DNA of 64,000 nt from Escherichia coli. GTDB lineage: Bacteria > Pseudomonadota > Gammaproteobacteria > Enterobacterales > Enterobacteriaceae. Below are positions 12,328 to 36,351 of the stretch, in pieces (positions within the stretch are counted from its first letter, which is position 1; every line of letters starts with the position of its first letter). The notes under the pieces are model-generated. The model was not told the origin of the DNA. It searched no databases and was given only the letters and a program-made list of their open reading frames with translations. The position numbers and the translations under genes are program-made. Where the stretch lies: the NCBI RefSeq assembly GCF_044324875.1, contig NZ_CP172185.1; one strand, 5' to 3'.

Positions 12328-12610
12328 CTGGCGGGGGAAACACGATACCAGCGGGCGTGACTCGGGAGAATATATACCGCTGGTGGAACATTACCAGCCC
12401 TGATGGCTGGTGGCGTGCGTTACGACCTGAAAGACCATCCATGCGGGAAGGTGACACAGGAGCACCTGGCGAACGCGGGGAAGCGACTGGATGAGATTAA
12501 GAAAAAACAGCAGGAGCGCAGAAAAAGTAACCGTCTCATTAAAACGTCTTTCGCCTCCCTTTCCTGTTTCCTATGCTAATGTCCATTTTCGCAGTAAAAG
12601 GACATTTACG

Positions 12611-14419: not shown

Positions 14420-14921
14420 CTACCCTTGTTTTTTATCCAAGCTGGAAAATGGTTCATCTAGCAACAGGATATCTGGATTTGGAACCAGTGACCTTGCAAG
14501 GGCAATACGTTGCTGCTGACCTCCTGAAAGTTCATGAGGATAGCTGTCTGAATAGTGGAATAAATCCACCATTTTCAACAGTTCTGTAACTCTGGTTCGC
14601 TGTACATCTCTCGGCAGTCTTCTCAGACCAAAGCCACGTTTTGTGAAACTGTAAGGTGGGGAAAGAGCGCATATTCCTGAAAGACTATACCGACATGACA
14701 TTTCTCCGGCGGAAAATGCATATCTGCGCTGGCCACACAATGCTGTGATACAAAAATTTCCCCTTGTTCAGGCGCTCAAAACCAGCTACAGCACGTAGTA
14801 CTGTTGTTTTTCCACAACCTGATGTACCAAGCAGACATGCCAGTTCACCTTTACAGACTGACATACCCCCCGCCCCGCAATACAGGATATGGGCTATTGG
14901 GATAAACAACATGGACATCAT
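14420..14921 (-). pseudogene. ABC transporter ATP-binding protein, frameshifted and truncated
   Basis: Walker A GTSGCGKTTVL in ORF 14685..14921; signature [13 protein letters not shown] and Walker B LLLDEP in ORF 14420..14740; different frames. Confidence 0.6.
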
Positions 14922-14951
14922 TAATACATAAAGCTGTTTCTTCAGACATAA

Positions 14952-15552
14952 TCAATCCTCTGATTTCAGTCTTTCAGCTGGAACAAACAAAATAACCGGA
15001 AATGTCCCTGCAAGAACAATCATTAAAGCAGAGATGGCCCCTTCTTCAAAAGTTCCACGGGCTGCTTCAGCATAAAGAAGTGTTACTGGCAGTTCTTTCA
15101 TCGCATCAGTGAAAACCAGCAGGGCACTGCTCACCAGAGCAACACAGGAAAGTGAACCCGAACAAAAGTTCCTGTACCATTTTCTCCCAGCAGACGTGAG
15201 GCTTGTTCCAGTGACGCTGGTATACGTCCCAGCCGGACATCAAGTGCGCCGATGGCTATTGCCTGAAATCGCATCGTACAGCAAATCACCAACAGGACAC
15301 CGACAGACATTAAAGGTAACCCCCTGTAATCCAGTAGTTCCGCCAGCCAGCGGTCATTTAGGGAGTCAGAAAACCAATCGCCAGAATCGTGCCCGGAAAG
15401 GCATAACCCAGCGACGCCCCTCTCATCACACCGCGCCTGAACAGTGGCATAGCGTTGAGGAATTCCGGGCATTCCAGACTACGAGCAGACTGACAAAAAT
15501 TACGACAAAGCGTTGAAGGAAGCCAGCGCGCGGACTGACAGGACTTTACCAT
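14952..15552 (-). pseudogene. ABC transporter permease remnant
   Basis: Hydrophobic ORFs 15358..15552, 15131..15472 and 14952..15134 in three frames, upstream of the ATPase remnant. Confidence 0.45.
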
Positions 15553-15822
15553 AAAAACACAGGCTAACCGCGCCTGCGTTTTTAATGACGGATGAAACAG
15601 AATCAGGTGCCGATTATGCCGCCGTCGGCTTTTACGATAACGACAGTTGAGGAGCGCGGACGACCAGCCTTATCGCCGTCAGGCCAGCTTGATACTGCCG
15701 TCGGATGCTGCGGATCGCTAAGCTGCGTATTCCGCTCTATTCGATCACGGATTGGCATCGAAGTCCGATCAGCGATTCGCATCCATTCGATCAACCGGGA
15801 ACTTAACTTTTTCTACCGCTTT

Positions 15823-16578
15823 TTAACGCGTTTTTTCGCTGCTTTCCACTACCGGGGGATTTTTCCTCAGTGACTCTCCCTGAAGGACCACTCGGTGTGA
15901 GTTATGTACCAGTCTGTCCAGGATGGCATCTGCTGTTGTTGGGTTCTCCATCAGACCATGCCATTTATCTACCGGGAACTGGCTTACCACTATCGTGCTG
16001 CTTTGTCCGTAACGATCCTCTATGAGCTCCAGAAGGTCATTACACTGGGCGTTACTTAACTGTTCCAGCCCCAGATCGTCCAGGATTAGAACCTGTATTT
16101 TTTGCAACTGTTTCAGATATTTCAGCCAGCTGCCATCAACACGTCCCTGAGCCAGTTGTTCCAGTAATCGCCCGGTTCTACAGTACCGGACGCTGTGTTT
16201 CTGTCGACATGCCTGTTCGCCCAGCGCATTGGCTATCCAGCTCTTGCCACATCCTGTCGGACCGGTTATCAGCAGGTTTTTCCTGTGGGTTATGTAGTGG
16301 CCGTTCAGCAGTTCTCTCATCTGTTCAGCCCGCAGACCTCTTGAGGCCGGATAGCGCAGCCCTTCCGGTGTTGCCTGGTATTTCAGGCCGGCATTTTTTC
16401 TCAACCGTGCCACACGGCTGTTTTCCCTGCTCAGAAGCTCGTCATCAACCAGCAGCGTCAGCCTTTCCTCGAACGACAGTTCGTCGTAGGTCTGAGGCGT
16501 TTCCCGCTGCCGTATCAGGCTCCCGGCCATCGCCGGGAGTTTCAGTTGGGTCAGTTTGTTTAACAGGTTATCACTCAT
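15823..16578 (-). CDS. IstB-like ATPase of the IS21-family element
   Basis: Walker A GPTGCGKS; likely start MSDNLLNKL at 16578 with AAGGAA RBS. Confidence 0.8.
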   Translation of the reverse strand: MSDNLLNKLTQLKLPAMAGSLIRQRETPQTYDELSFEERLTLLVDDELLSRENSRVARLRKNAGLKYQATPEGLRYPASRGLRAEQMRELLNGHYITHRKNLLITGPTGCGKSWIANALGEQACRQKHSVRYCRTGRLLEQLAQGRVDGSWLKYLKQLQKIQVLILDDLGLEQLSNAQCNDLLELIEDRYGQSSTIVVSQFPVDKWHGLMENPTTADAILDRLVHNSHRVVLQGESLRKNPPVVESSEKTR

Positions 16579-16594
16579 ACTGTTGTTCCTTCTG

Positions 16595-18130
16595 TCAGTG
16601 GTAGTAGCCCGGACCACGCAGGTTTTCATGCTCTGAAGCATATGCCGGATGTTGTTCGCCCTGGCGGGATAATGGAAGCTCCAGGTTCTCCCGATGGTGA
16701 CGCAGCAGATTGTCGATAAAGCGTCTGTCAGGGGCGTTATAGTGCAGGGCAACGTAACAGGCCTTTTCCAGCCGTTCCGGGCCGTATTTTTTCTGAAGTG
16801 CCAGCAGCCCCAGAACTGCACGATAAGCCAGTTCCGGATGGGGTTTTGCCTTCAGCATGGATTCAACCACCCGGCCTGTGGACGGGCCCGTACGTTTTCC
16901 CTGCTCGATCAGGCGTTCCGGTGTCCATGTCCCGTGCTGCCGGTGGCGCTCTGGCATGTGAAGCGGATTGGTTGTGTGTTTATATTCATGTGTGCTGCGC
17001 GGATGTTGCGCCACACACTGCCCCTTGTGCCAGAGCTGTACCACCGACTGCCCCGCCTTCAGTGACAGACGCTGACCGACCAGTTCGTGTGGAACGGAGT
17101 ACCAGTGACGGGCATATTCAACGTGGTAGTCAGGGCCAACCTTCACAGCTTTGTATTCCGTGTATTCATAAGGTGCCAGAGGCAGCGGAGAGAGTGCTGG
17201 CGCATCCAGTATGCGGAAGCGTTCTGCACGGGTTTGATTGCCGTACCCCTTCATTGGCCGGTTATTCATGTCTGTCAGTAACTCCCTAAGGCGCGCATTC
17301 AGCGCCCTGAGCGTGTGGAAGGTTTCATTACGGATGCGGGCAAGAAGCCATCGTTCAACGATGAGGACGCCGTTTTCTGCTTTTGGTTTATCTTTAGGTT
17401 TGCGTGGTCGGGCCGGGATGATAACCGTGCCATAGTGCTCAGCCAGTGCCTGATAACTGTCGTTGATGACAGGCTCATATCGATCGGCCTTTTTCACTGC
17501 GCTTCTGAGGTTATCGGGGATGAGCAGCTTCGGTACGCCGCCCAGGAAGGTCAGGCAACGGCTGTGGGCATTTAACCATGACATCATGTCCTGACCTTCG
17601 CACGCTTCAACGTAGGTATAGTTGGACGCCCCCATTACGGCCACGAAGATTGCCACGCGGCGTATCTCACCGGTGTCCGGATTAATAACAGGAACCGTAG
17701 GACCACAGAAGTCGATAAAAAGCTTTTCGCCGGCACGATGCTCCTGGCGCATGGAGAGACGTCGCGTTTTTTTCCACTCCCGGTAGCAACGGCAGAAGTG
17801 CGAGTATCCCATCGCTTTGTTACCCGCCTGTGCCTTGTATTCCATCCACAACAGTTGCCGCGTCACACCTGGTTTTCTCATTTCCGTATCGAAGTACAAC
17901 ATGTCAGGCATTACAAGCTCTGATGCAAAGGTGTCTTTGGGCGGAAAAATGAGTTTCTCCAGCGTGTCATGGGATATATCAGCAGGTAATGGCCATGACA
18001 GAGAAGAGGCTTTGAAGCGGGCAAGAACCTCAAAAACGGTTGAGGCGCTGATGTGTAACGTCAGTCCGATACAACGGTTAGTCAGCTTCTTGTCGAACTT
18101 GAGCTGAAGGATCTTAAAACAGGTTTCCAT
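16595..18130 (-). CDS. IstA-like DDE transposase of the IS21-family element
   Basis: 548 aa ORF; likely start METCFKILQ at 18130 with AGGAG RBS; N-terminal HTH and rve core. Confidence 0.8.
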   Translation of the reverse strand: METCFKILQLKFDKKLTNRCIGLTLHISASTVFEVLARFKASSLSWPLPADISHDTLEKLIFPPKDTFASELVMPDMLYFDTEMRKPGVTRQLLWMEYKAQAGNKAMGYSHFCRCYREWKKTRRLSMRQEHRAGEKLFIDFCGPTVPVINPDTGEIRRVAIFVAVMGASNYTYVEACEGQDMMSWLNAHSRCLTFLGGVPKLLIPDNLRSAVKKADRYEPVINDSYQALAEHYGTVIIPARPRKPKDKPKAENGVLIVERWLLARIRNETFHTLRALNARLRELLTDMNNRPMKGYGNQTRAERFRILDAPALSPLPLAPYEYTEYKAVKVGPDYHVEYARHWYSVPHELVGQRLSLKAGQSVVQLWHKGQCVAQHPRSTHEYKHTTNPLHMPERHRQHGTWTPERLIEQGKRTGPSTGRVVESMLKAKPHPELAYRAVLGLLALQKKYGPERLEKACYVALHYNAPDRRFIDNLLRHHRENLELPLSRQGEQHPAYASEHENLRGPGYYH

Positions 18131-18241
18131 AGTGCTCCTGGATTTTCTCTTTCTGGACATTGACGTCTCCACTGGTTTAAACACGGCAATGGAGACTGTG
18201 GTGAAAAGAGTTAATTCCCGGAGTGACTGGCAGGATGCCAA

Positions 18242-18365
18242 TCAATGATCGGAAGCATGCCAAATCGTGATCGATTGTGATGCCAAACTGTGATCGGAGA
18301 TGGATGCCAAATCATGATCGATTCGAATGCCAAACTGCGATCGATTCAGATGCCATTTTGCACTA
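18242..18365. repeat. Five tandem ~23-bp direct repeats (ATGCCAAAYYRTGATCGRWKNNN), terminal repeats of the IS21-family element
   Basis: Seen directly; inverted versions lie at the other IS end. Confidence 0.6.
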
Positions 18366-20227
18366 AGCCCTTCGCTTGGCTCGCCAGGGTGCTGGATGTT
18401 AATAAACAGCGTCCGGTTATCCGGAGTGAACGCGATGCCGGTGATTTCGCAGCCGCGCGGGCCGGTCAGGAAGCGGCGGAACTCATTGGTACCGGGAATC
18501 GTCGCCACCATCTGGTTGTTGCCCATGCCTTTGTAATCTTTAATATTTATGGTTGATGACGACACGTCGGTCTGGATCCATAGCACGCCGCGGTGATCGA
18601 AGCTCAGGCCATCGGCGCTGCCGAATTCCGCACCCTTCATGCTGCCTTTGGTTTCCGGTTTGTCTGTATCGGTGCGACCGCCCATCACAAGAATATCCCA
18701 GGCAAACTGCAGCGCGGTCGGGTCACCGTTATGCTCCAGCCAGTGAATGATGTGGCCGTAAACGTTTTTGGCGCGCGGGTTGGCCGCATCCACTGGCGCT
18801 TTTCCTTCCTTACCGCGATCGCTGTTGTTGGTGAGCGTGCAGTAAACGCTGCCGGCGTGATATGGATCGACCGCAATCCACTCCGGGCGGTCCATTTTAG
18901 TGGCCCCCACGGCGTCTGCCGCCAGACGGGTTTTAATCAACAGGTCGCCCTGGTTTTCAAACCCTTTACTGGCGTCGAGCCCATTTTGTCCGAACACCAG
19001 CGGTAGCCACTCGCCTTTGCCGTCGTCGTTAAATTTCGCCACGTACAGAGTGCCTTTTTCCAGCAGGTGCATGTTGGCTTTGCGATCCTGCGGGTTGAAT
19101 TTTCCTTCCGAGACAAATTTATATATGTATTCGAATTTCTGGTCATCGCCCATATAGACCACAACGCGGTTATCCGGGGCAATTGTCACCGCTGCGCCTT
19201 CGTGTTTGATGCGACCAAGCGCGGTGTGCTTGCGCGGCACTGAATGCGGATCGTATGGATCGATTTCCACCACCCAGCCGAAGCGGTTCGGCTCGTTCGG
19301 CGTGGCGTCGACGCTGAACCTTTTATCCACTTCGTTCCAGCGGTAAGAGTCGTCGCTCCCGCTGATACCGTAACGTTTTTCCAGCGGGTTCATCTCTGCT
19401 TTTTTTACGAAAATATCGGACCAGTTCTCTTCACACGTCAGATAGGTGCCCCACGGCGTAAATCCGTTGGCACAGTTCTGCATGGTGCCGAGAATGATTT
19501 CGCCTTTCGGATCGTCAACTGTTTGCATCAGTGGGTTATGCAGCGCCGGACCGGTGATTTTCATCGGCGTGTTAACGGTGATGCGGCGTGCGAACGATGA
19601 CGGGCGCACCACTTCCCAGCCCAGGGGCACTTTTTTTACTTCAATGACCGACACGCCCATCGCGTTCTGGCCTTTAAGAGCTTTATCGGCGCTCCAGTTG
19701 GCATCGCCATCTTTAAACAGTAGACCGTTATCGATGTATTCATGGTTTATGGCAAGCAGGCCGTGATCGGAGCTGTTCCCGCCCTGCGGCAGGCTAAACC
19801 ACGCCATGCCGTCGTGGTGCATCCCGGCCTGCGCCGCCTGTTCTTCCGTGGTGTTGCTACCGTCGGTTTTAAAAACCGGCAGATTTCCGGCAATCCCGGT
19901 GGCGTCGCCCCATTTGTAGAAGGGCTTCGCGATGTATCCTTCCGGCACGATAACGGTATCTTCCGTGGAAACCGGCAGGCTGGTGAAACCGAGCGTCGTC
20001 GCTTTGCCGAGGTTACCGCTTGCTTTGGAGACCACTTTCGCCAGCGCGTTTTCCTGTTTCAGCAGAAATGGGAACGCTGCCGCGGCACCGGCGACCGTGC
20101 CTGCCTGTAACAGACGGCGGCGTGACAAATAGACTTCCGCCACCTGCGAAAACGCGCGGTTATCGCTCGGGTTACTGATTTCTTCACTATGCTCACGTTT
20201 GAATAAAGTTTTTAACGGTCTGCCCAT
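18242..20227 (-). pseudogene. PhoX-type (DUF839) Tat-signal phosphatase, C-terminus replaced by the IS21-family end
   Basis: Twin-arginine motif LSRRRLLQAG; beta-propeller phosphatase-like body; the last ~40 codons of the ORF are encoded by the IS terminal repeats. Confidence 0.55.
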
Positions 20228-20649
20228 TGCGGTTTCCTTTCAAAAAATCGATTTCAAGGGGAATCATTTTTATGCACGTGAGTCTACGGAAAGATTGTTA
20301 CGGAAATATAACAATTGTCATAAAAAACCGGCGATAAAATCATCTATGGTCGGGACGCGGTTTCAGGTATGATGTGAGGCTAGAATTCTGAACGCTCTCT
20401 TTTGTTGAGCATATATGGACGTCCCAGATGAGGCAAGTACTGGTTCGATGCGGTTTGCGACCATATATCCGGCGTCGTTAGTAGGTTCAATGACCTGCGC
20501 CATGATGTTATCCGGGCCCTGTTTCCTAATCACTACACCGGTATTTGATTACCCAGGTCAACTTCAGACTGTTACAGGGGCGGTAGCCGTTATCTCATCA
20601 GTGAATGTAAACTCAGTTAAAAATATTTTCTATAACTTACTGTTTTTCT

Positions 20650-20859
20650 TTAATTCATCACAACGGCCTTCTGCATATTAAAATCAATACTATCGCTCAA
20701 AACACGCCAGATGATTCTTGTCAGCTTATTCGCCAGCGCACCAGTGGTTTTCAGGAACCCTCGACGGGCTTCCATCCTTTGCAGACAAATACTCAGACTG
20801 TCAGTGAGCTTTTTCACACAGCGCATTACAGACTGAAATGGCACACTGAATTTGGTCAC
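20650..20859 (-). pseudogene. IS110-family transposase C-terminal fragment
   Basis: ...TGALANKLTRIIWRVL motif. Confidence 0.4.
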
Positions 20860-20869
20860 CTGAACAGAG

Positions 20870-21606
<737 letters not shown>

Positions 21607-21612
21607 CTAGCT

Positions 21613-21649
<37 letters not shown>

Positions 21650-21988
21650 TAATTACACTGTGGGTTGACGCCGGAAGAATCAGAGAACAGATACCGTTCT
21701 TACTGTAAAACGTGGCTAATATTAATTGAGCACTGCAGTGTTCAGAGCACAAAGAAGAAAAAAGATGTGTGCGAATGCCTGTAATGTGTTAAAAGAATGT
21801 TCCGCGTTTCCGGTACGCTTTTCGTAACTAACAATGCAGGGTGACGTAACGCTGGTTGTGCCGGAAACGCGTCCCTCCCCCTATCTTTCCTGTTTGGATT
21901 TGCCCCTATATTTCTGGATTATCCGACAAAACCGGCGTGAAGTATTACTCTCGTCGCCCAGCACCATAAGGATAACGCCCATAAAATC

Positions 21989-22354
21989 ATGAAACTTTTC
22001 TTCCAGATTGGATACAATCAGGCCGTATCCCGTATTACAGGCTTATCACGTGTGACAGTCAGTCTCTGGGTGTGTTCAGGAACATTCCCTGAAATGTCAA
22101 CCCGGCCTCCAGAGCGAGGACTTCTGGCCCCATGGAGGGAGTGGTTAAAAGAGCAACGAGAAAGTGGTAACTTCGGCGCGTGGCTGCAAGGATGGCAGCT
22201 GATGCTGCGGCTATATGTGAGGCAATCAGCAGTCGCTGGAATAATGGGGGTTGTCGAAAGTCATGTAAATCGACTAAAAATGCTGAAAGGCCAGATGTAT
22301 GGTCGAGCCGGATTTGAACTACTCAGGCAGAGGGTCATGAGTCCACTGGCATGA
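21989..22354 (+). CDS. Hypothetical protein with possible HTH (AlpA/Cro-like) N-terminus
   Basis: 121 aa ORF; weak resemblance only. Confidence 0.25.
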   Translation: MKLFFQIGYNQAVSRITGLSRVTVSLWVCSGTFPEMSTRPPERGLLAPWREWLKEQRESGNFGAWLQGWQLMLRLYVRQSAVAGIMGVVESHVNRLKMLKGQMYGRAGFELLRQRVMSPLA

Positions 22355-22562
22355 AAATCTCCATCCAGGTTGCGTAAGAGCCACTTTTCATCCGTCGTCG
22401 ATATCTGGGATAGCCATAGTGAAATAAAAAGCTGTCTGAATTAAATTATTTTGCACATATATTTTAATCCTGCACTGAATTAAGAATGGGTAATCAGTGA
22501 CCGCTTGGACGGTCACTTTTAAGAGAAGGCATTAACAGAGAATGGTAAACAGGCTCAATATA

Positions 22563-23014
22563 TTATGTTGTTGGCACTACAGATGAATGATGGGATGATA
22601 TTTTCCAATCCTTTCCATCCCACTCATAAGCGAAACTATAGCGTGCTGAAACTTGTTTTTTATCTTCAAAAGTAAACGTGTAATTCCCTGTATCAAGAGC
22701 CATATTGCATCCAATGCGAATAGTTCTGAAGTTTATTTCTCCAACAGGTTTTTTTTTCAAAAAATGCTCAAAATAGTCAACTCTTTCTGCATCTGTAATC
22801 CTAATTTTTTTTGATACTGTGGGCAGTAAGATCGCATCACTTAAATAGTTATCAGCAACCTTCTTGGCATCACCTGTTTTTAATGATTCATTCCAGCGAT
22901 CGAATAACCTTTCAATGTCTTTACTATCTACCCGAATACACTTAACATTATCTACGTCACTTGCCCACGACGCTCCAGAAAACAGACACAGAATTAAAAT
23001 ATTTATTTTTTCAT
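22563..23014 (-). pseudogene. NTF2-like (DUF4440/SnoaL-like) secreted protein, frame broken in an A6 tract directly after the ATG
   Basis: AGGAGG-4nt-ATG at 23014; ATG AAA AAA TAA as written; one extra A gives MKKINILILCLFSGASWA signal peptide plus a ~130 aa NTF2-like domain ending ...WKISSHHSS. Confidence 0.5.
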
Positions 23015-23245
23015 AACTCCTCCTGATCAGCCTGAAACTTTTTTAAAGTTTAATCATATTAATACAGTGCAACTATTTGATAGTAAAAACGATGTTCTCT
23101 ATTTTGTTAATAGATACTTCCTATTGTGTATATATTATGAGATTATTAAGAATAATACTCTCTGGGTCGTAGAGACAGGGTATAAGTCACAGGCTGGTGT
23201 GGTTCGGATGTTCTTGCCCCCTCAATATCAGACTGCTATTGTATC

Positions 23246-23611
23246 TTAAGTTAACGTTATCCGCTGACGTCGATATTCCCGTGGTGAGAGATAACCTAAC
23301 GCACTATGCGGATGGTTTTCATTGTAATGCTCGAACGCCTCTGCAAGGTTATGCAATGCCGTTATTACATTCGGTTTCGGTATGAACGCAATGTAGTCTT
23401 CCTTCATCGTTTTCACTAACCTTTCTGCCATTCTATTGCTCTGAGGGCTACTGACTGCCGTCGTGCAGGGCTCCAGATTCAACTCTCTGGCGAATTGCCG
23501 TGTTTCATGAGCCGTATAAGCCGAACCGTTATCCGTCCGCCACTGGATTGCTCGTTCCGGTCCTTTATCGCCAAAGCGTTTTTCTATCGCTCCTAACATC
23601 ACATCCTGCAC
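23246..23611 (-). pseudogene. IS3-family (IS2-like) OrfB C-terminal fragment
   Basis: ...[18 protein letters not shown]...[14 protein letters not shown] motif. Confidence 0.55.
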
Positions 23612-24375
23612 TGTCGGCTTTATCGTAACCTCCCGTACTGGTCACGGGCAGACTGTTCATCATGTTAAACCCAGCCGCTGTCAGATCATGCACCGGCCGG
23701 ATGGCGGGCTGACCTGCCCCGCCGCGCTGCTGCCCGCCAATCCATTTCTTACCTTCCTTCCCGGTGGCCTGACGTCCGGCCTCGTCCCCTTTCACCGCAT
23801 CACCGTCACCGCTGTTCACCACCTTCTTGTACTCTTCCAGCATCGCTGGCCTGCGTCCATTTGCTGCGATCAGAAAAGTCCATCATCCGTTTTGCCATGT
23901 TCTGGCAGTTCAGTTACGCCTTGTCGAAAGCCACATTCGCCTGCAGCACACCGTTGGTGATCATGTCGTACAGGCCGGGGTTGGCACGCTGTATCACCAT
24001 CGCCGGCAGACTGGCAGCGGCGCCGGTCGCCCCCTGAATCACATCCCCCATCAGATTTTTAAAGCCGTCGGTCAATCCGTTAAGATGATTACCCACCGTG
24101 GTCTTCAGGTCAAAGTTGCCGCACATCAGATCGCTGCTCCAGCCCAGGTCCATACCCAGCTTCTGCATGTTGCTGCGCGTGGCCAACTGTGAGATCACCG
24201 AGCCGCCACCCAGCGTATAGAACAGTTTGTCGGATACGGCGCCATCCACGGATTTCCCGTAACCGAACGTGCTGTCATTCAGTTTCGGCAGGGAAAGAAG
24301 ATCAGCCATCGCCGGAATACTGCAGTACAGCATCACACTCAGTGCCACCATACCTGTTTTCATCTTCATCATCAT
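23565..24375 (-). pseudogene. Conjugative-transfer (ICE-type T4SS) TraH-like protein, truncated/frameshifted
   Basis: Signal peptide plus conserved body in ORF 23914..24375; C-terminal part in another frame (ORF 23565..23843); family call from memory, weak. Confidence 0.35.
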
Positions 24376-24381
24376 GGTTCC

Positions 24382-24780
24382 TTAAAAATTCGTACTGCCA
24401 AGGAATCGCTGCCCGCGCTTTTCGAAGCAGCTGTAAGGCTGCCACAGTGCAAAGGCTGCATTACCGTTCTCCGCCGCCTGGTGTTCACCATCCGGGAAAA
24501 CGGCACAGGAACGCGACACTGACGGCGTCAGTCGCTGCCATTTGTGATTGCGGGTGCCGGTGTTTTCCTCCACCGCCTCCGGGGGCCAGTAGCCGTCACG
24601 TTTCACGCCCTTAACCTCCCTGTAGACATGCGACTCCCCCATCCGCGTGATAATGTCGGCCACCCGCTGAGCCCCCACCGCCGCGGCCCGGTCATCATCG
24701 CTCTGCATCACAAAACCACTCCGGTGATAAACGCTCCCCCACATGTTTTTATCGGCCTAGCTGCCAATCTCGCGTTTGCC
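24382..24780 (-). pseudogene. ICE-associated protein with in-frame amber codon near the 5' end
   Basis: ORF 24382..24744 extends upstream in frame across a TAG at about 24758. Confidence 0.3.
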
Positions 24781-24825
24781 GGGAACCTGTGCCTCTGGAT
24801 ACAGGGATTCAGGTAATCCCGTTCG

Positions 24826-25356
24826 CTAGACGATGCTGTCCAGGGTACTGAGGAAATAGGCCATGGCCGGTGTCACCGGTGAATCACAGCTGAATCCGGG
24901 TACCATCCCGCCGATAAGCTGTGTGGCCGGATGACCCAGCGCATCTGCGTATTTGAAACGAATTGCTGAACGGCGCTTCCCCTGTATTTTCATATCCGCC
25001 GGATTTCCCCCGCCGGCACTCAGCCCGGACAGGCCGTCAGTGATGGCATTCTCCGGGCCACCTGCGGTCCGGCTGACCAGCGACATCTCTTTCCAGGGAT
25101 TACCACCCGGTGCCGTATAGGTGGAAATAACCACTTCCGGGATGAAATGTGTCACCTTCACGGAAATTCTGACCGTACAGCCAGACGCGCTGCAGTAAAG
25201 CCAGTAACAAATCCCGCTGACACGCCAGCTGATATAGTCCGGTGCCGCAGTACTGGCGATAATGCTGGCGGTGTTCAGTGATACAGACGCCAGGGGCAGT
25301 GATGCCACACTCAGTAACAGCACGCCGGTACGCAGACTACATTTCAGGGACATCAT
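24826..25356 (-). CDS. Conjugative-transfer TraU-like protein
   Basis: 176 aa; signal peptide; Cys-rich motif GICYWLYCSASGC; weak family call. Confidence 0.35.
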   Translation of the reverse strand: MMSLKCSLRTGVLLLSVASLPLASVSLNTASIIASTAAPDYISWRVSGICYWLYCSASGCTVRISVKVTHFIPEVVISTYTAPGGNPWKEMSLVSRTAGGPENAITDGLSGLSAGGGNPADMKIQGKRRSAIRFKYADALGHPATQLIGGMVPGFSCDSPVTPAMAYFLSTLDSIV

Positions 25357-25748
25357 GGCTGCACTCCTCCCTCAGCACGGATTTTCCCGGCCATCACCAC
25401 ATCCATAGTGCCGTAAACCACCTCACTGTCATCAAACACCACGGCAGGGTATTTCTTCACGCCCAGCGACTAGGCATGTGCCACATCGCGGTAATGACCG
25501 GCCAGTTCCGCCTGCATCGTCTGCCATTCGGGAGACTTCATACGTACCCTGACCACCGATTCAGCCTCACCCGCATCAGCAGGCAACAGGCCCCAAAAGC
25601 GGCTCTGAAGCTGCTCAGGCGCATCCAGCAGAACCACCCTGACACCATCAGGAGGATTAACGGGAAGATGCTGAGAATCGGTATAAATTGTTGTGCCGGC
25701 AGACGCTGCCAGCGGCAGGAAAAACAGGGAACAGAAAATCCGGTACAT
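25330..25748 (-). pseudogene. ICE-associated periplasmic protein with in-frame amber codon
   Basis: ORF 25470..25748 continues in frame after a TAG (...RDVAHA*SLGVKKYPAVVFDD...). Confidence 0.4.
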
Positions 25749-25943
25749 CGTACACCTCAGTCAGATATTATCTGACTGACAGCGTGCGAAGAAAGCGCTC
25801 ATTTATCAGCAATAAATTAAAAACGGGATTAAAAAATTACGGTGGGATCCGGGGAAGTGTATCTGCCAAGCATAACAGACAGTCTGTGATTATACCCGGC
25901 CTTTCACAAAGCCGGGGAACTGATTCATACCAAGTGGTGATTT

Positions 25944-26195
25944 TCAACAATAAGTATAATGAGGTTGTCCCGGCACCGGTGGCAGTGGTTCGAGATAGAC
26001 GTCATCAACAAAAACACAGGGGAATTTTTCAACTGCACATCCAGCACGCTCAGACATTACCTTCAGACTGATACCATGTTTCTCAGCATCAATAAAGAGG
26101 ACATCTGCCCCTGTTTCATCCCGGAGATTTGTCGCATGATGCATGATCCGGTGTACTGAAGGACATGTTTTGTAACCAAAAACACATATACGCAT
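25944..26195 (-). CDS. Small glutaredoxin/thioredoxin-fold-like protein
   Basis: Internal start MRICVFGYKTCP...; weak. Confidence 0.3.
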   Translation of the reverse strand: MRICVFGYKTCPSVHRIMHHATNLRDETGADVLFIDAEKHGISLKVMSERAGCAVEKFPCVFVDDVYLEPLPPVPGQPHYTYC

Positions 26196-26681
26196 GTTGC
26201 ACCTCCTGATCACTGGTTGACGCCGATAATAAAACAATAATGTGAGCGTAAAAAATGCACCTCATACCACATTTCTGTAAAAGGCTCTGGCTATCACTGC
26301 AAAAAGCAAAATCTTAATTCCAGCATCACTTGTTACTCTCATTCCGTCACTTATATTTACCCACATGGCGATGTATTTAATTACTGCCCATAAGAATAAA
26401 AGCCGCTGGCGGATTATTTCTTTATTACCCGGATGCGGTCACAAGCCCACACATCGTCAACTACCTGCCGGTAATATTAACTGTCAGAAGAACGCATACA
26501 TCCGGATGTTTACAGAGTCGCGCGCCTGGTCACAGGTGACAACAGAAGTATGCCATACTAAAGGAGTAAACGGCGGGTCACTGGTGATCAAACACCTGCA
26601 TCGTGTGTTGCTGCCACTGCCCTCAGGTGACAGAGGCAGCATCTTTACGTATTATAATGCGTTATATCGGGTTTGTTGTTA

Positions 26682-28769
26682 TCAGAACTGATAGTTCAGC
26701 GACATCCAGTAATTTCTCTCAGGTATCACATAACCCGTTGTCGATGCCCCCGTCTGGAAGTAATCACCCGCATAAAGCGTACCACTGCCGGCACGATACA
26801 GACTTACGTCACTGTAATCCTTGTTAAGCACATTATTCACCGCTGCATTCAGCATCAGTGCATCCGTCACTTTCCACGACATGCCCGCATCCAGTACCGT
26901 CCAGGCTTTCAGATATTCACCTTTCTCATCATACACTTTCTTCTGTACAGCTGAGAGTGACGAATAATTCTGGGTGAAACGTGGCGTTTTCCCGCGGTAA
27001 CGGGCACCCAGCCATGATGTCACCTCTTCAGTAATCTGCCAGTTCAGTTTCGCATTCACCATATGCTCAGGGGTGTAACTCAGTGGTGCACCTTTATTAT
27101 CCCCATCCCGTTGTTCACTCTGCGTCCAGGTATAATTCAGAGACAGAGTCACATCCTCTGACAACAGAGGCAGTGTGCCGGCAAATTCCACGCCCTGAGT
27201 CCTAGCCTTTCCGCTGTTTGTGTAGCTGCGGGTATTATCATCAATGGAATAAGATACGATCTTGTTGGAGAATTCTGTCATAAAGCCCGTGATATTGGCG
27301 TTCAGACCGGCATGATTATCGTAATACACGCCCGCTTCATAACTGACACTCTCCTCCGGCTTCAGGTCCGGGTTACCGAGAAGATTCGTACGCCCCTGAC
27401 CGGACACACCGCTGATCCCCTTATGTAACTGCCCCATGCTGGGCGCCTTATATCCCGTGGTCACCCCACCTTTCAGCGTCCACGCATCAGTCACATCCCA
27501 GACCATATATGCCCGGGGACTGAAGTGTCCTCCGAACACCTCATAGCGTTCATAGCGGCTACCCGCAGTCAGTGCAAATGCATCCGTGATATACCACTCA
27601 TCCTCAACAAATGCCGACCAGCTTTTCTGACGGAAGGTTTCACCAGTACTGGCGAGAACAACCCCGTCTTTCATGGAGGAGTTCTGATACTCACCACCGA
27701 CGGTAACCTTGTGTGATTCCCCCAGAGGTGCAAACAGTAATGAGCTCAGGATAAGATTCGACTCCTTAAGCTCCCTCGGCTGGCCGGCAAGCCCCCATTT
27801 ATCACGCTGCAGTACGCTACGTACAAGCTGACGGCCTTTATTTTCCGTCTCATTCCAGTTCAGGGATGACTTCCAGGCTCCGAAGGTGAATGTATGATCA
27901 TAGCCTGCTGAAATTTTATTACGCTCATAGCGCAGGGTGCGATCATAACCGCCCGTCAGACTGCCCAGCTGGCCATCTCGGTTATCATAACGCTGCCGGG
28001 CGATATCCATATCAATCCAGAGTACATCCTTGTCCGTCGCTTTCCAGTCAAGACGACCACCTGCATTATAATTCTGTGATTCCGTGGGATAAGGGATACG
28101 CGTAGCTGAGGTGTCGCTCAGTGATGTGACCGATGAGCCCTGACGCTGCTGTGTGCTGCCACGTACCTGAAGGCTGAGTGAATCATCCACAAGGGGACCG
28201 CTGCTCCAGAAATTAAACTGGCTGCTGTTCCCCCATTTGTTACTTTCCTGCAGGTTCAGCCCGGCATTAACCGAAGAGCGCCATTTGTCTGCATTCTTTT
28301 TGGTGATGATATTCACCACGCCCCCCATGGCATCAGAGCCGTACAGAGTGGACATGGGGCCCCTGATAATCTCAATACGTTCGATGGCGGCCAGAGGTGG
28401 CATAAAACCCGTATTCATGGCAGCATAACCGTTTGGGGTTACGTCACTGCTCCCGCCCTGACGGACACCATCGATCAGTATCAGCGTATAACTGGCAGGC
28501 ATTCCGCGGATGCTGATTTCCAGCCCACCTGTTTTACCCGTACCGCTTTCAACATCCACCCCCTCTACGGATCTCAGTGCCTCCCCCAGATCATGATACT
28601 GGCTGGATCGCAAATCCTCCTGGCTGATCACTGAAACACTCGCAGCTGCACTGGTTAATTTTTTTTCATAGCCAGACGCCGTGACTACCATCACATCTTC
28701 CGCAGCCATACTGCTGACTGAAAACCCGAGACAAGGGATGGCTACTGAAGCCAGAGTGGTTACTCGCAT
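26682..28769 (-). CDS. iha: TonB-dependent outer-membrane siderophore receptor/adhesin Iha (IrgA homologue)
   Basis: 695 aa; signal peptide; TonB-box/plug then beta-barrel ending ...YWMSLNYQF; closely matches Iha as recalled. Confidence 0.8.
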   Translation of the reverse strand: MRVTTLASVAIPCLGFSVSSMAAEDVMVVTASGYEKKLTSAAASVSVISQEDLRSSQYHDLGEALRSVEGVDVESGTGKTGGLEISIRGMPASYTLILIDGVRQGGSSDVTPNGYAAMNTGFMPPLAAIERIEIIRGPMSTLYGSDAMGGVVNIITKKNADKWRSSVNAGLNLQESNKWGNSSQFNFWSSGPLVDDSLSLQVRGSTQQRQGSSVTSLSDTSATRIPYPTESQNYNAGGRLDWKATDKDVLWIDMDIARQRYDNRDGQLGSLTGGYDRTLRYERNKISAGYDHTFTFGAWKSSLNWNETENKGRQLVRSVLQRDKWGLAGQPRELKESNLILSSLLFAPLGESHKVTVGGEYQNSSMKDGVVLASTGETFRQKSWSAFVEDEWYITDAFALTAGSRYERYEVFGGHFSPRAYMVWDVTDAWTLKGGVTTGYKAPSMGQLHKGISGVSGQGRTNLLGNPDLKPEESVSYEAGVYYDNHAGLNANITGFMTEFSNKIVSYSIDDNTRSYTNSGKARTQGVEFAGTLPLLSEDVTLSLNYTWTQSEQRDGDNKGAPLSYTPEHMVNAKLNWQITEEVTSWLGARYRGKTPRFTQNYSSLSAVQKKVYDEKGEYLKAWTVLDAGMSWKVTDALMLNAAVNNVLNKDYSDVSLYRAGSGTLYAGDYFQTGASTTGYVIPERNYWMSLNYQF

Positions 28770-28817
28770 ATCTTCTCTCCGATTATATTAATCAGAGAGA
28801 AGATAAACAAACGCAAG

Positions 28818-28834
28818 AGATAATGAGAATGATT
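28818..28834 (-). promoter_or_regulatory. Candidate Fur box upstream of iha (GATAATGAGAATGATTT)
   Basis: Close match to the Fur consensus about 50 bp upstream of the iha start. Confidence 0.4.
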
Positions 28835-29093
28835 TGCTTTTGGTTTTTACATAAAAAAGTAAAAAATTACAAAATATTACATAAGGTTCTACTATACCCC
28901 GAATTTCAGTTGAGGACGTTCTTTTCTCTAGGGGAAAGTAACGGATAGCAATCGTTGACGATCCATATCGGATTTTTGCACTATGGGTATTTATCCAATC
29001 TTTATCAGTTTCTTGTCCTTGGATATGTTAATCATACACTATCGGATATTTCGTACATCAGACAGGTGAATATAATTAATAATGAGGAGTTTT

Positions 29094-29366
29094 ATGGACA
29101 ATAGAACAATTACTCTGCAGGAATTACTCGAGTACATGTCAATGCTTCGAGACGACATGAATGCTCTCACGGTTGCATTTTCATATCTGGCTTCATCGCT
29201 TCCTAAGGAACAGATGATACAAATACTGGCATTCATTCATTTTGAATCAAATAATTCCAGATGGTCTTCAGAACAGCAGAAATCTTTCAAATGGCTAGCA
29301 TCACTACTGGAGGGCTGTTATACAGTTCACACAAACATTTTTGATATACCATCAAAGAACCACTAG
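29094..29366 (+). CDS. Hypothetical 90-aa protein
   Basis: ORF with GAGGAG RBS 6 nt upstream of the Met at 29094; no family recognised. Confidence 0.3.
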   Translation: MDNRTITLQELLEYMSMLRDDMNALTVAFSYLASSLPKEQMIQILAFIHFESNNSRWSSEQQKSFKWLASLLEGCYTVHTNIFDIPSKNH

Positions 29367-30030
29367 TACATTATGATACATTCCCTCTGAAATATATTTC
29401 TACTTTGAGCGCCTCTGACTTTATGAGGCGCTTTGTCCAGCAAACCAAACATACTCGCTGGAAACAGAGTAAAGTATTATTATCCCCGATACATCTATAT
29501 TTTACAACAGCGCATCCATATATTAATTAACGATGCAGTTAAGTTCCCCATTCTACCCAATTTACTGTTTTTGTTGTTTGAAAGAAGACTCTCATTAAGT
29601 GAGAGCCATCTGTAAGTATCCCGCATAATCGCTCCATTCATATTTAGAGATCATCCGGAATAATCAATCTGATAACGAAGAAAATCGCTATGCGTAAAGC
29701 CCGTATTACTGAGTATTAGATCATCGCTGTAATTAAATCGGTTGAAACCGGACGAACAATTAAAGATGTTTGTCGGGAAGCCGGTATTTCTGAAGCCACT
29801 TACTACATCTATTGACTACCTCAGTTTTGCAAGCACTGATTCTGGTTTTGGATTGTTGCTTACATCTATCCGGCATCAGGAAAACCTGTGCCCAAATAGG
29901 GAATCCACACACAATCGCCTCTACAACTGGACGACCTCTGAGGCCAGTACAAAAATCAGGTTCCGATTGTGCAGGTGCAACCCGTCACCATTTCTCAGTA
30001 CGCTGCAACTTTTGCTGAAAGAGATTAACT

Positions 30031-30440
30031 TCACACTGCCTGATATTCTGTATCATTTATCAGCATCGACCAGATTATTCTCGCGTATTTGTTAGCAATC
30101 TCCACAGTAGTTTTATTAAATTCGCGACTCTCCTTTAACTGCTTAACCCACTGATTTAGGTATACATCATTATTATTCGTAGCAACTCTAACGACAGCAC
30201 GGACGCCATGAATAAAAAGTGTTTGCAGATGCTTGTCGCCTTTTTTCGTTATATTCATGAGAACTTACCTGCAGCAACTCTAGTGCAGGCATGGAAGCAG
30301 ACCAAGCCATGCAGCACAGTGACGATCATTCTTAAATTCAGTGCCTTTGCCAATAATAACAGCAACAACGCTCGTGACAATTTCAGGACCAATGCCTTTA
30401 GCTTTTGCAATACGCTGACAGCATTCAGATTGCCTGGACA
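30031..30440 (-). pseudogene. IS110-family transposase fragment
   Basis: C-terminal motifs IGPEIVTSVVA... and ...ANKYARIIWSML in shifted frames. Confidence 0.4.
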
Positions 30441-30502
30441 GGTCTCTATTTATTTATCAAAAAAGTTTATACTACGACCGAGATCGTTAAAGAGATCATC
30501 TA

Positions 30503-31655
30503 AATAGCTGCGCCTAATACCACTACACTTTTGCCAGCCCATGTTTGCCTCCGGGGAACGGGCTGATGGTTTCCATAAAATGGCGAATTTTTTTCAACAG
30601 TTGCCACATTGAGCGGCACTGATGATTACGCGTTATTGTGTCGTGAAGTGCCTGCCATAGCCGTTCAACATGATTCACCCATGGCAAGTAAACCGGCTGA
30701 TAAATGACCCTGAACTTCGGGTTCTCCTTCAACCAGCGCTGTGTTTCCCGGCTTTTGTGGATAATGTAGTTGTCCACGATCAGTGTGATGGTTTTCACCC
30801 GAAGGTATGTCGCTTTAAGCCGCTTCAGCAGGCTGATGAACAGCGCCGAACTTTTGCTGTTGCCGCCCACATAGCTGACTTTACCTGTCCCGCTGTGCAG
30901 CGCTCCGGCCAGATCATATTTTTCATTCTGTCCCGGCGTGACCACCCGTTTTTGCTGTCCGCGCAGTTGCCAGTCCGCACCGATTTTGGGATTAAGATGG
31001 ATATCCACTTCATCTTCATAAAAGACCGGATGCTCTGTGCTGCATTCGTCCAGTGCTTTATGGATTGCTGCCATCTTTTCATCTTTATGCGGGTCACGGA
31101 TACGCAGAGTTGGCGCAGCCCTTCGCCACACAATCCCCGCAGACGGCAACCAGCGGCGAACGGTTCCGGCATTTAACTGGCAATCGGTTATCTCATTGAT
31201 TTTTATTGCCAGCAGTTCTGTACTCCAGCGTGAACGCTGGTAGCCAAAGTCGCCGGGAGAATGTTTTACCAGCTCACGTAACAGTGTGCAGATATGCTCA
31301 AACGACCAGAGACGGGCTCGCCCGGCAGGTAATGATTTCAGTCCCTCAACACCCGACTGCGTGAACCAGTTAATCCAACATCCAACAGAGGAACGGGCGC
31401 AGCAGAGCGTTCTGGCAACGTCGCTGACACGGTCGCCCCGGTGCAGCATCAGCATGGCAGTCAGTCTGCGGGCATAATTTTTATCGTGTGTTTTATGGAT
31501 GGCTTTCTGCATCAGGCGTCGTTCGTCACGGGAAATTGGTGCTATGATCGGCATTGCTCAGTCCGGTTGGTGATTTGTTTTGATTTGGCGATTGATCAGA
31601 TCGCACAATCCAGGCTGAGCTCCCTCAAAGTGATCTACTATTCCGCGCAGCTATT
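30503..31655 (-). mobile_element. IS630, 1153 bp, inserted at CTAG with TA duplication
   Basis: 343 aa transposase matching IS630 as recalled; terminal IR AATAGCTGCGC; TA on both sides. Confidence 0.9.
30523..31554 (-). CDS. IS630 transposase (Tc1/mariner superfamily)
   Basis: 343 aa ORF MPIIAPISRDERRLMQKAIHK... Confidence 0.9.
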   Translation of the reverse strand: MPIIAPISRDERRLMQKAIHKTHDKNYARRLTAMLMLHRGDRVSDVARTLCCARSSVGCWINWFTQSGVEGLKSLPAGRARLWSFEHICTLLRELVKHSPGDFGYQRSRWSTELLAIKINEITDCQLNAGTVRRWLPSAGIVWRRAAPTLRIRDPHKDEKMAAIHKALDECSTEHPVFYEDEVDIHLNPKIGADWQLRGQQKRVVTPGQNEKYDLAGALHSGTGKVSYVGGNSKSSALFISLLKRLKATYLRVKTITLIVDNYIIHKSRETQRWLKENPKFRVIYQPVYLPWVNHVERLWQALHDTITRNHQCRSMWQLLKKIRHFMETISPFPGGKHGLAKV

Positions 31656-31789
31656 TAGTTCCGCTATCGTTCTGCACATACAAGCTTTTAACCCGTTTAT
31701 GCATCCTCAAGGCTCAGCAGAATAGCTGTCAGCGCCAATGATATAAGACAGTAATGGGGATGCGGACGATTTCCTGGACTCTCAGGAGA

Positions 31790-33110
31790 TGAAACATGTT
31801 TACTGAAGAAGAAAAAATCCGCGCCATTGAGCTTTATTTCAAATATGTGACCCGTCCTGAATAGCGTTGACACGTTCCTACTTAAATCCGGAGAACGTAA
31901 TGATGACTTAGCTCAAACGCACCCAACGTGATTATCCTCTATCCTTTAAAATAGCTGTTGTTGAGCAGGTTGAAAAAGGCGAGATGACTTATAAACAGGC
32001 CCAGCAGCGGTATGGCATTCAGGGGCGCTCCACCGTTCTTGTCTGGTTACGTAAATATCCTGGACTTCCTGAGCTGGTGAAGAGGAAACTGCCTGTGACT
32101 CAGACAACTATCCCGCTCACACCCGAGCAAAGAATCAGGGAACTTGAAACGTAGCTTGAGCTGGCGAACCAGAAAGCTACGTTTTTTGAGTCAGTTATCA
32201 ATGTCCTGAAAAATGATTACGGGGTGAGTATCGTAAAAAGCGGCCCGGCAAGTCCTCGCGCAAAGTCCGGTCCCCAAAATAACTGTGACGCGTGCAGTCT
32301 GTTCCTGGGACACAGCAGACAGGCATGGTATCAGGACAATGCAAGGCGCAGAAAACGGCAGGAACATCATGCTCAGGTTCTTGATTTTGTTGCCCGTGTC
32401 AGATGTCGTCAGCCCCGAATCGGTGCGCGTAAGCTGCACTATCTGCTGAACACTCAGGCCGATAAAAGGCTGAATATCGGGCGAGACCGCCTGTTTAACC
32501 TGCCCGATGAATACCGACTCCTGGTGCCAGTAAAACGGTCATATCACAAAACTACCAACAGCCATCATCGCTTCTACCGACATCCAAACCTGCTTAAACC
32601 AGGCCCTGAACAGGTTACTGCTCTTGAACCAGAACAGGTCCGGGTCGCCGATATTACTTACCTTCCACTGCGCAATAGTTCGGCCTATCTGAGTCTGGTC
32701 ACCGATGCCTGCTCCAGAAAAATTATGGGCTACCATGTTGGGGAAAACCTGCAGACAGAAAATGTGGTAAAAGCGTTCAGACAGGTGCTGAAGCTGAGAA
32801 AAACGACGAGTCCCCTGGTGCATCATTCTGGCAGGGGCTGCAATACTGTTCAGCGCTCTATCAGTCAGTTCATGAAAGAAATGAAATAACCTGTTCAATG
32901 ACTGATGGTTATGACTGCTACCAGCATTGGCTGAGTGAATAAATGGTACCCTGAAAAATGAGTTTTTACTCTCGCGTCCTGCAGACCTGGCTCAGGCCCG
33001 GGAAATGGTCCAAGAGTCCGTGGCAATTTATAACCATGAGCGGCCACACCTGGCTCTGAAATACAAAACGCCCTATGACGTTCATCAGGCGTTTTACAGA
33101 CAGAAAAGTG
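31790..33110 (+). pseudogene. Degenerate IS3-family element (OrfA/OrfB with several stops)
   Basis: Frames read ...YPLSFKIAVVEQVEKGEMTYKQAQQRYGIQG... and ...RIGARKLHYLL...VADITYLPL... Confidence 0.5.
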
Positions 33111-33129
33111 TCAACTTATACCAAGACTA

Positions 33130-33750
33130 GTCAATGGTAAGAAGCTGGCTCCCGTCGTACGCGAACTGGGCTACCCTTCGAAAAGAAATCTGCGGCGTTG
33201 GATCCGTTCATAGGAATCAGGTGGCGGAGCAAAAGAATCCATTCGCCATAAGCCCCGTTACACAGATGAGCAAAAACAAGTTGCCGTTGAACATTATCTT
33301 AACCACGGCTGCTGCCTAGCGTTTACCAGTAGAACTCTGGGTTATCCCTGTACCGATGTGCTCGCTCGCTGGGTTAATGAACGTTACCCCGGCAGACGAC
33401 GTATATTTACCAGTAAGACCAGTCCGGTTGCGCCCTTTGAACCAGAAGTCAAACGTCAGGCTGTCATGGCATTCTGTACACGACAAATATCAGCCAGTGA
33501 AATCTCTAGGCGTATTGGTGTCAGTCGTGCGGTATTGTATAAATGGAAAGATGAAATTATCGGCAACAGTGCTTACCAGACTATGCGTAAACATAACGAA
33601 CCTTCCCTGGAGGCAGAACGCGATGCGTTGCGGGAGGAAGTCGCCCGACTGAATCAGGAAATACGCCGCCGGCAGATGGAACTGGATATTCTGAAAAAAG
33701 CGGAGAAAATCATAAAAAATCTATGGTCACCCCCGTTTTTGCTACACTGA
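33130..33750 (+). pseudogene. IS3-family (IS150-group) OrfA with in-frame TAG
   Basis: ...IRS*ESGG...ISRRIGVSRAVLYKWKDE...LDILKKAEKII; its OrfB resumes at 36352. Confidence 0.5.
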
Positions 33751-34178
33751 TTTTTGATTAATGGTGGGCTTGCTTAAATCTATCCGGCGTCTCTGTGGAC
33801 AAGGAGACCCGCGCCTCGATGAGTTCCGCACCTGATAATCCTAAAAAGACCCTCGGCTTCAGTGAGCCATTTTTTCTGTCAGGTTTTTAATCAGGTCTAT
33901 TTGCCGTTCATGTCATCAATAATCAGTCTTCGCAAAACCAGACAGGTAACTTGTATCTTATTTTTTAAAATAAGCTAATTGAGTTTTGTCAGTATCTATA
34001 TCAGGCCTGATATTCTTTGTGCAGAGCAGTGATTGCCCAGGCTATTCGGGCCAGTTTATTTGCCAGAGCGCAGGCGACAATATTTGAATGCTTATTGTCG
34101 AGTTGCTTTTGAACCCATTCAGCAACTCTGCCCTATTGAACCGCCCCGGGTTTCCTGGAGAGTGTTTTATCTGTGAAC

Positions 34179-35069
34179 TCAGGCTGCCAGATCATCGTTT
34201 CCGATGGAAGCATAATAAGATTTTTCTGCTTCTGCCGGTGGGATATGGCCCAGCCTTTCCAGCAATCGTCGATTGTTATACCAGTCCACCCACGTGAGTG
34301 TGGCCAGCTCCACTTCTGTCCGGTTTTTCCAGCTCTTACGGTGTATTACCTCCGCTTTGTAAAGGCCATTGATGCTCTCCGCCATCGCGTTGTCATACGA
34401 GTCACCAGTACTTCCTGTTGATGCCAGTAATCCGGCTTCCTTAAGCCGCTGTGTGTAGGCCAGCGATACATACTGAGAACCTTTATCACTGTGATGGACT
34501 GTGCCGGACGGTCGACGGGCCCATAACGCCTGCTCCAGAGCATCCAGCACGAATGTCGTTTCCATAGACGATGAGACCCGCCACCCCACGATGTATCCGG
34601 CAAACACATCAATGATGAACGCCACATAGACGACCCCCTCCCATGTGCTGACGTAAGTAAAATCAGCCACCCACAACTGGTCAGGACGTTCTGCCACAAA
34701 CTGACGGTTTACGCGGTCGCCTGCGGCAACGGCTTTCCGGCTGACGGTAGTGCGGACCTTTTTACCCCGGAGAACACCGGCAAGTCCCATAACCGCCATG
34801 AGGCGCGCCACTGTACATCTGGCTACCCTGATTCCTTCCCGTAACAACTGACGCCAGACTTTACGCACACCGTATACCTGATGATTCCCATCGTATACGC
34901 GCAGTATCTCTTTCTTCAGCCAGTCATCGCGCTGCGCACGGGCACTGCGTTTATCCGGATGATGTCGCTGTTGCTGACAGTGGTAATACGTTGACGGGGC
35001 AATATGTAGTTCACTGCATACCGGTCCGACCCCGTACAGCTTACGCAGCTTATCCAGCAGTGGCATCAC
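34179..35069 (-). CDS. IS629 OrfB
   Basis: Identical to copy 1 OrfB except for one residue (Q/E). Confidence 0.9.
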
Positions 35070-35392
35070 TTTTTCCAGAGGCGGTCGAACTCCGCCTTCG
35101 CAAAATAAGCGGAAGCCTGGCGAAGGATATCGTTACTGCGGCGCAGTTCACGATTTTCACGTTCCAGCTCTTTCAGACGCTGACGTTCAGCGGTGGTGAG
35201 CCCGCCATCACCGCCTCCGGTATCCCGCTCATGCTGGCGTACCCAGACACGCAGAGTCTCCGGTGTACAGCCAATCTTTGGGGCAATGGAACAAATTGCC
35301 GCCCACTGTGAGTCATATTCGCCCTGACTTTCCAGAACCATACGAATCGCCCTCTGACGGACTTCGGGGGAAAAACGAGTATTTTTAGTCAT
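35066..35392 (-). CDS. IS629 OrfA
   Basis: Identical to copy 1 OrfA except for one residue. Confidence 0.9.
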
Positions 35393-36351
35393 TCTGTTTA
35401 CCTCTTTCTCAGGGAGTTTAGTCTCCAGGATTCCCGGGGCGGTTCACTATTGATGCTCCAGCCGCATCATGAACGAGCGGGCGTACAGAACAAGTAACCG
35501 ACTCGTTTGCTGATCCCCAGCAGCATTGATTTACCACCGGTACTGTATTGTCGGGGAACAAGTCCTGTGGATGCTGCAAAATCCCTACTGCACGAAAATT
35601 GTTTACCATCACCAAGCTGGGATGATAGCAGGCTGGCCGTCATCGGCCCAACACCGGGGATTGTCATGATTCGTTGCACAGTAGCGTCAGCTTTGATTGA
35701 CTGGTTTAACTCTGATTCCAGTTCTGTTATTTGCTCAATACGATAAAGATAGTGAGCATGTAATTTCATCAGCAAGCGACTCAGATATTCAGGTATTTCG
35801 TGTTCAGCTAACGCCAGAGATAACCATTTTATTGCGGCATCCCCTGTCGGCAGTCTGATTCCAAATTCCAGCAAGAAACCGTGGATCTGGTTGTTTTTTT
35901 TCACCTTATCTCTGATGAGCGATTCTCTGACCCGATGTAATGCCCTCATTGCCTGCTGGGTTTCTGTTCTGGGCTGGACAAAACGCATTGATGGTCGTGA
36001 AGCCGCTTTGCATATGGCTTCTGCATCAATAAAATCATTCTTATTACCTTTGACAAACGGACGCACGAATTACGGAGAGATAAGTTTTTCTTCATGACCG
36101 ATGTCGCTGATACGCCGGGCCATAAAATGCGTACCAGCGCAGGCTTCCATAACAACTACTGAGGATGGACATGTTGCCAGAAACTGCATCAGCTTCGTAC
36201 GCGTAAACTTTTTACGCAAAAGCGCATTGCCAGATTTATCTTGACAATGAATATGGAAAGAATGTTTACCGAGATCGATACCAATAAGCGCAACGTTTTA
36301 CATGATGGTGCCCTCTAAAATAACCCACCCTGTCAGCGTACCGCTCACAGG

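Follow-up and report, generated by a model that had tools for sequence, protein, structure and literature searches.

In wild-type lacI, CCAGG sites gave a roughly tenfold excess of ambers (Coulondre et al. 1978, from the summary in PMC12606429), and CCWGG is widely recognized as a hot spot in large collections of E. coli mutations (PMC13250602). Low very-short-patch repair (Vsr) in growing cells, through growth-phase regulation, is the cause cited for residual hot spots (reference list of PMC2715241), and Vsr is known to push CTAGG towards CCAGG (PMC2715241). For the locus described here, we propose that Dcm would methylate the inner C of CCWGG, that the 5-methylcytosine would deaminate to T, and that the resulting T:G mismatch would sometimes be missed by Vsr. 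The expected product would be CTWGG or CCWAG, and a TAG codon would arise if the site were read as C-CAG-G or CC-TGG. Methylation of the sites at the time of mutation, and deamination rather than replication error as the cause, are what we infer from the sequences.

The locus lies in a 64,000-nucleotide stretch of an E. coli chromosome, referred to below as the window, which begins with xthA followed by ydjX, ydjY, ydjZ and ynjA, all of them E. coli chromosomal genes. A decayed island occupies positions 5066..62650, from an integrase gene to just short of sitA. Its cargo genes iha, amiC and sodC are intact amid frameshifted or truncated transposases, and it further carries the beginning of sitA, remnants of two ICE genes and IS remnants by the dozen. 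Many of the island genes are labelled "frameshifted" or "internal stop" by NCBI PGAP, and every amber or Dcm-type site that we studied falls inside the island. Our main reading, to which we give a probability of roughly 85%, treats the ambers as ordinary nonsense mutations now carried by pseudogenes of a degraded acquired island, with about a fifth of all in-frame stops arising through Dcm-site deamination.

Copies of the island at about 99.9% identity were found in many strains, and roughly 55-60 island copies exist in all. Compared with its counterparts in strains SCU-115 and ECCNB12-2, the island shows 99.9% identity, with differing IS insertions, while the core flank at 1-1848 is 97.5-98.1% identical to these two strains. 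Since identity is higher in the island than in the core flank, the island is younger or more recently exchanged than its chromosomal backgrounds. Five window segments are missing from SCU-115 and/or ECCNB12-2: 1849-3155 (1307 bp), 15724-18362 (2639 bp), 34140-35446 (1307 bp), 47985-48751 (767 bp) and 57268-58035 (768 bp). All are IS-like in size, and the first splits ydjY in the core flank. At 53908-55416 the window has ltrA, the gene for a group II intron reverse transcriptase/maturase, as an unbroken ORF of 502 codons, and the near-identical ECCNB12-2 copy carries an "internal stop" flag. A short ltrA-paralogous fragment at 51195-51281 has a Trp-to-TAG change in a non-Dcm context. An inverted duplicate of about 600 bp, an IS3-family remnant at 20994-21597 and 56055-56658 (99.8-100% identical), carries a Gln-to-TAG change common to both copies, at 21096 and 56554.

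The sequence-only reading had named five CTAGG or CCTAG pentamers as sites of in-frame ambers in otherwise conserved frames. All five pentamers exist, with the first a CTAGG at 9593-9597 and not at 9594-9598; the TAG is in frame at 9594, 24757, 25470 and 41360, but not at 37959. In the TIGR03757-family ICE pseudogene (25353-25748), the amber at 25470..25472 on the minus strand replaces an ancestral gCC TGG. The change is CCTGG to CCTAG, that is, G to A across from the inner C that Dcm methylates. Of the five intact homologues from E. coli, four read gcc TGG and one gca TGG, with W as the residue. The TIGR03756-family ICE pseudogene (24382-25356) has its amber at 24757..24759, likewise on the minus strand, with an ancestral agC CAG Gcc that changed from CCAGG to CTAGG by C to T at the methylated inner C. 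Here the intact homologues have CAG in 5/5 and CCAGG in 3/5, the latter being the closest. A second amber in this gene, at 24826..24828 (minus strand), derives from gTC TGG, and the pentamer TCTGG is no target for Dcm. One TAG in the TIGR03757 pseudogene and two in the TIGR03756 pseudogene are the only interruptions, and Gln or Trp is encoded at the ICE amber sites in 5/5 intact homologues.

The third such stop lies in an ISEc21-like IS110-family transposase pseudogene (40832-41908), at 41360..41362 on the minus strand, with the ancestral tCC TGG. It is again CCTGG to CCTAG at a Dcm site, and tcc TGG is present both in an intact ISEc21 copy (97.6% identical) and in a 91% relative. The gene is broken by TAG alone, and the other of its two ambers, at 41339..41341 (minus strand), is a TAC-to-TAG transversion unrelated to Dcm. 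The remaining pentamer, 37959..37963 on the plus strand, belongs to an IS3 orfA remnant (pseudogene 37856-38564) and is a Dcm-type transition, CCTGG to CCTAG, with the changed base at 37962; its ancestry was taken from alignment with two of the fetched loci (L012 and L013). In the orfA frame (37879+3n), these bases read AGC CTA GAG, and the change is CTG to CTA, Leu to Leu; a match to an IS3 orfA homologue showed no orfA-frame stop at 37961. The nucleotide-level comparison brought out one further Dcm-type change, CCAGG to CTAGG at 33506..33510 (plus strand) in an IS3-family remnant, where the base at 33507 changed, with TCGCCAGGC in the ancestor and TCTCTAGGC in the window and no stop in the frame of the gene.

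A less direct case is the yebF-like pseudogene (about 9418-9770, plus strand), which has an in-frame amber at 9594..9596 in place of an ancestral CAG (Gln), and a 1-base deletion upstream of it as well. The window reads GAC TAG G where the sole intact homologue reads GAT CAG G (TCAGG). Since a T precedes CAG in that homologue, the Dcm context is drawn from the present-day C, which makes a CCAGG ancestor probable. The same amber (GAC TAG GTG) was also found in two copies that are 94.8% (L009) and 93.7% (L010) identical and sit at a different locus in other E. coli genomes, beside a ROK-family regulator. The 57 codons past the TAG, starting from the adjacent GTG, are annotated by the pipeline as an intact "YebF family protein". 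Either the stop is old or the short downstream ORF has been retained.

Taken over these sites, the proposed ancestry of CAG or TGG within CCWGG was borne out by homologue alignment at 24757, 25470 and 41360; at 9594 the alignment recovered CAG only, and at 37962 it recovered CCTGG with no stop. The closest intact homologues carry CCTGG at 25470, 41360 and 37962 and CCAGG at 24757 and 33507, and the change is an inner-C transition (C to T, or G to A opposite) at 6/6 sites: 9594, 24757, 25470, 33507, 37962 and 41360. A Dcm-deamination origin is thus firmly assigned to three stops and probable for one, and two more Dcm-type changes produced no stop. The description of frames as interrupted only by TAG fits the TIGR03756, TIGR03757 and ISEc21-like genes; it fails for the yebF-like gene with its deletion, and for other island pseudogenes, which have TAA or TGA stops or frameshifts. 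The sequence-only reading was also right that further ambers occur outside this context, the two it named being real: the one at 41339 and the one at 11210..11212 (minus strand), a TGG-to-TAG change in ACTGG, non-Dcm, within an IS903-like IS5-family remnant (10958-11535). An IS3 orfB remnant has another non-Dcm amber at 38351..38353 on the plus strand, from ACG CAG AAC. Three other TAGs were rejected as premature stops: the one at 33128 ends an IS3 orfB as its native stop codon, and those at 33317 and 38762 are out of frame, with 38761 falling within the intact amiC.

For a census of stops, curated annotated intact proteins were compared with the translated window, covering 3848 pseudogene codons with intact homologues; the homologues were taken from other E. 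coli records and aligned to the pseudogenes. The use of all ORFs from all fetched loci as the query set gave many spurious antisense-frame "stops", and the curated set was used instead. Nineteen in-frame stops were supported by homology (14 TAG, three TAA and two TGA), and 13 were C/G transitions (CAG 6, TGG 6, CGA 1). Stops at Dcm-target codons represent 4/19 overall, 4/13 of the C/G-transition stops and 4/14 of the TAGs. When nonsense opportunities were counted as surviving or mutated codons one transition away from a stop, 4/16 (25%) had been used in Dcm context vs 9/332 (2.7%) elsewhere (odds ratio 12, Fisher p=0.0017), a comparison that rests on four events and whose apparent significance is inflated because the window was chosen for these very sites. 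In the ICE and ISEc21 genes, 3/5 of the ancestral-consensus CCWGG sites are mutated (3/10 target bases).

These two results weigh against coincidence, under which the changes would be ordinary transitions that fell in CCWGG by chance, and an independent, long-established mechanism exists for the alternative; we consider chance unlikely. In its favor, 10/14 of the in-frame TAGs lie beyond Dcm context. The window contains 29 CTAG tetramers, all within the island, and their flanks show no enrichment, with 14/29 in CCTAG or CTAGG vs 42% expected (p=0.32). With the flanks at chance, the CTAGG/CCTAG context is by itself no evidence, and intact homologues are needed to reveal the signal. The nucleotide-level test over all sets also points toward coincidence, with transitions at 4/36 Dcm target bases vs 216/4150 other C/G (odds ratio 2.3, p=0.12). 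This pooled value is diluted by the comparisons at 80-85% identity (deacetylase/GT4 vs pO157, and yebF), because most differences in those sets are older than the inactivation of the gene or lie on the other lineage. Among homologues at least 93% identical, a post hoc subset, the counts are 4/30 vs 67/2614 (odds ratio 5.8, p=0.008).

The dominance of amber codons has a largely ordinary explanation. The stops are rich in TAG because CAG and TGG are the commonest codons one transition from a stop, and 62% of transition opportunities yield TAG. Among transition-derived stops, 12/13 are TAG (binomial p about 0.02), and without the four Dcm sites 8/9 are (p about 0.07). Roughly speaking, codon usage and Dcm sites account for much of the dominance, and the rest is a mild excess. 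All six Trp-to-stop changes are TGG to TAG and none is TGG to TGA; without the two Dcm sites four remain against none, a split that falls short of significance, if slightly odd.

The stops are shared across strains. SCU-115, from a human in the USA, and ECCNB12-2, from a chicken in China, carry all of them unchanged (19/19). The three ICE ambers recur in three further strains (China, Pakistan, Egypt), which brings the other strains with them to five. Since strains from different hosts and continents have these stops in common, the mutations are older than any one lineage, and long-standing neutral decay, as the sequence-only reading had suggested, fits pseudogenes in an IS-riddled island. The changes would be neutral, and therefore retained, because the genes were already dead or were killed by the mutation itself. 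In the proposed sequence of events, the mutations would have been fixed in the island prior to its arrival in the present strains. Mutations that predate the present strains are uninformative on the repair capacity of this strain.

Sharing of this kind also speaks to sequencing error. Nanopore base-calling at methylated CCWGG can mimic substitutions, and about 95% of E. coli Nanopore-Illumina discrepancies were in CC(A/T)GG (PMC6703438). The miscalled base in that study has the C run on one side and the G run on the other, and we read it as the central W and not the inner C. The same alleles are present in six independent assemblies, which excludes such an artifact for practical purposes. In addition, 131 CCWGG sites in the window are unaltered, PGAP marks these internal stops in every carrier assembly with annotation that we read, and the yebF-like amber is also present in diverged copies.

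A related reading places the Dcm-type changes in an earlier host or donor, either another Dcm enterobacterium or one with an EcoRII-type plasmid methylase, from which they would have been imported ready-made. The stops are all fixed among the copies examined, the yebF-like amber is old enough to occur at another locus in copies some 5% divergent, and the island composition is unlike core DNA, all of which would suit an import. Against it, E. coli itself holds the nearest intact ICE and IS relatives, with identities of 93-98%; the mechanism, moreover, is the same as in our main reading and differs only in the place of mutation. We regard an earlier host as a tentative option, somewhat improbable on balance. 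A more specific version, in which the island or its source element once decayed in a CCWGG-methylating host (through Dcm or a plasmid EcoRII-type methylase) with poor Vsr repair, appears very unlikely. If it were true, Dcm-site decay would exceed the wild-type hot spot and, with the bias toward TGG-to-TAG changes, would offer a clue to the former host.

The sequence-only reading had further raised weak Vsr repair in this lineage, with faster build-up of deaminated Dcm sites, and had proposed checking vsr and dcm. In SCU-115, a carrier of the 99.9%-identical island that served as a proxy, both genes are annotated intact and were translated without internal stops, and no defect was seen. Over 157 translated positions, made up of 156 residues and the stop codon, its Vsr agrees with that of K-12 at 155. 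Of 5426 complete E. coli genomes, 5358 have a full-length dcm-vsr region. Among the three island copies, which offer a small sample, no recent excess at Dcm sites was observed, with 1/69 C/G transitions at a Dcm target vs 0.58 expected; the 182 SNPs among these copies are mostly in the core flank and have low power as a hot-spot test. The stops common to strains of different hosts and continents likewise argue against a defect in the lineage, as does the size of the excess, which is that of the wild-type hot spot.

What would favor reduced or absent Vsr repair is the contrast between the island and the core. CTAG depletion was reportedly linked to very-short-patch repair by Bhagwat and McClelland in 1992. 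In the island, CTAG occurs at 0.50 per kb, near the Markov expectation (29 observed vs 35.7), whereas the core, measured over 33.6 kb of SCU-115, has 0.21 per kb and is depleted about threefold (7 vs 21.8). The ratio of (CTAGG+CCTAG) to CCWGG is 14:112 in the island vs 2:106 in the core, the latter counted in the 33.6 kb of SCU-115 core plus the 5 kb flank of the window, and is thus roughly sixfold higher in the island (p=0.007). This contrast, however, is found within one genome and not between lineages. An island without CTAG depletion is better matched by decaying DNA, foreign or non-ameliorated, than by a repair defect. Weak Vsr repair in the lineage is not supported by this evidence, and we judge it very unlikely.

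Finally, the three genes interrupted only by TAG could suggest functional ambers, either recoded or decoded by a suppressor tRNA. A search of the window turned up no tRNA gene, hence no suppressor tRNA there, and the genes are isolated ICE and IS fragments amid frameshifted remnants. Together these make suppression or recoding implausible, and the codons lost had specified ordinary amino acids, namely Gln, Trp and Tyr; we give the idea almost no weight, as for the base-calling artifact. Ordinary nonsense mutation in dead genes, with a contribution from Dcm-site deamination, remains the reading that we prefer. It accounts for some of the "internal stop" pseudogene flags in a widespread iha island, and otherwise has little use beyond annotation.

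Compared with known systems, the phenomenon is a textbook mutational hot spot, already described, and there is no sign of altered repair in any lineage. The locus provides a natural example of the 1978 lacI result, in that Dcm sites in neutrally decaying DNA were mutated about 10 times as often as other positions at which nonsense codons could arise. The lacI hot spots of Coulondre, Miller, Farabaugh and Gilbert (1978) share the CCAGG/CCTGG motif, the inner C, the G:C to A:T change and the amber product, and the magnitudes are similar (about tenfold there, an odds ratio of about 12 here). The lacI cases were laboratory mutants in a reporter gene, while those described here are fixed natural mutations in mobile-island pseudogenes, numbering four events, with methylation deduced from the site. 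Regarding the proposed shaping of CTAG and CCWGG abundance by Vsr (Lieb and Bhagwat 1996), core CTAG is depleted as expected, whereas the island differs in showing no depletion. The E. coli and Shigella pathogenicity islands are likewise integrase-bounded graveyards of pseudogenes and IS elements, with broken transposases and ICE remnants; the present island, bounded by its integrase next to ynjA, is typical of them, with nothing distinctive.
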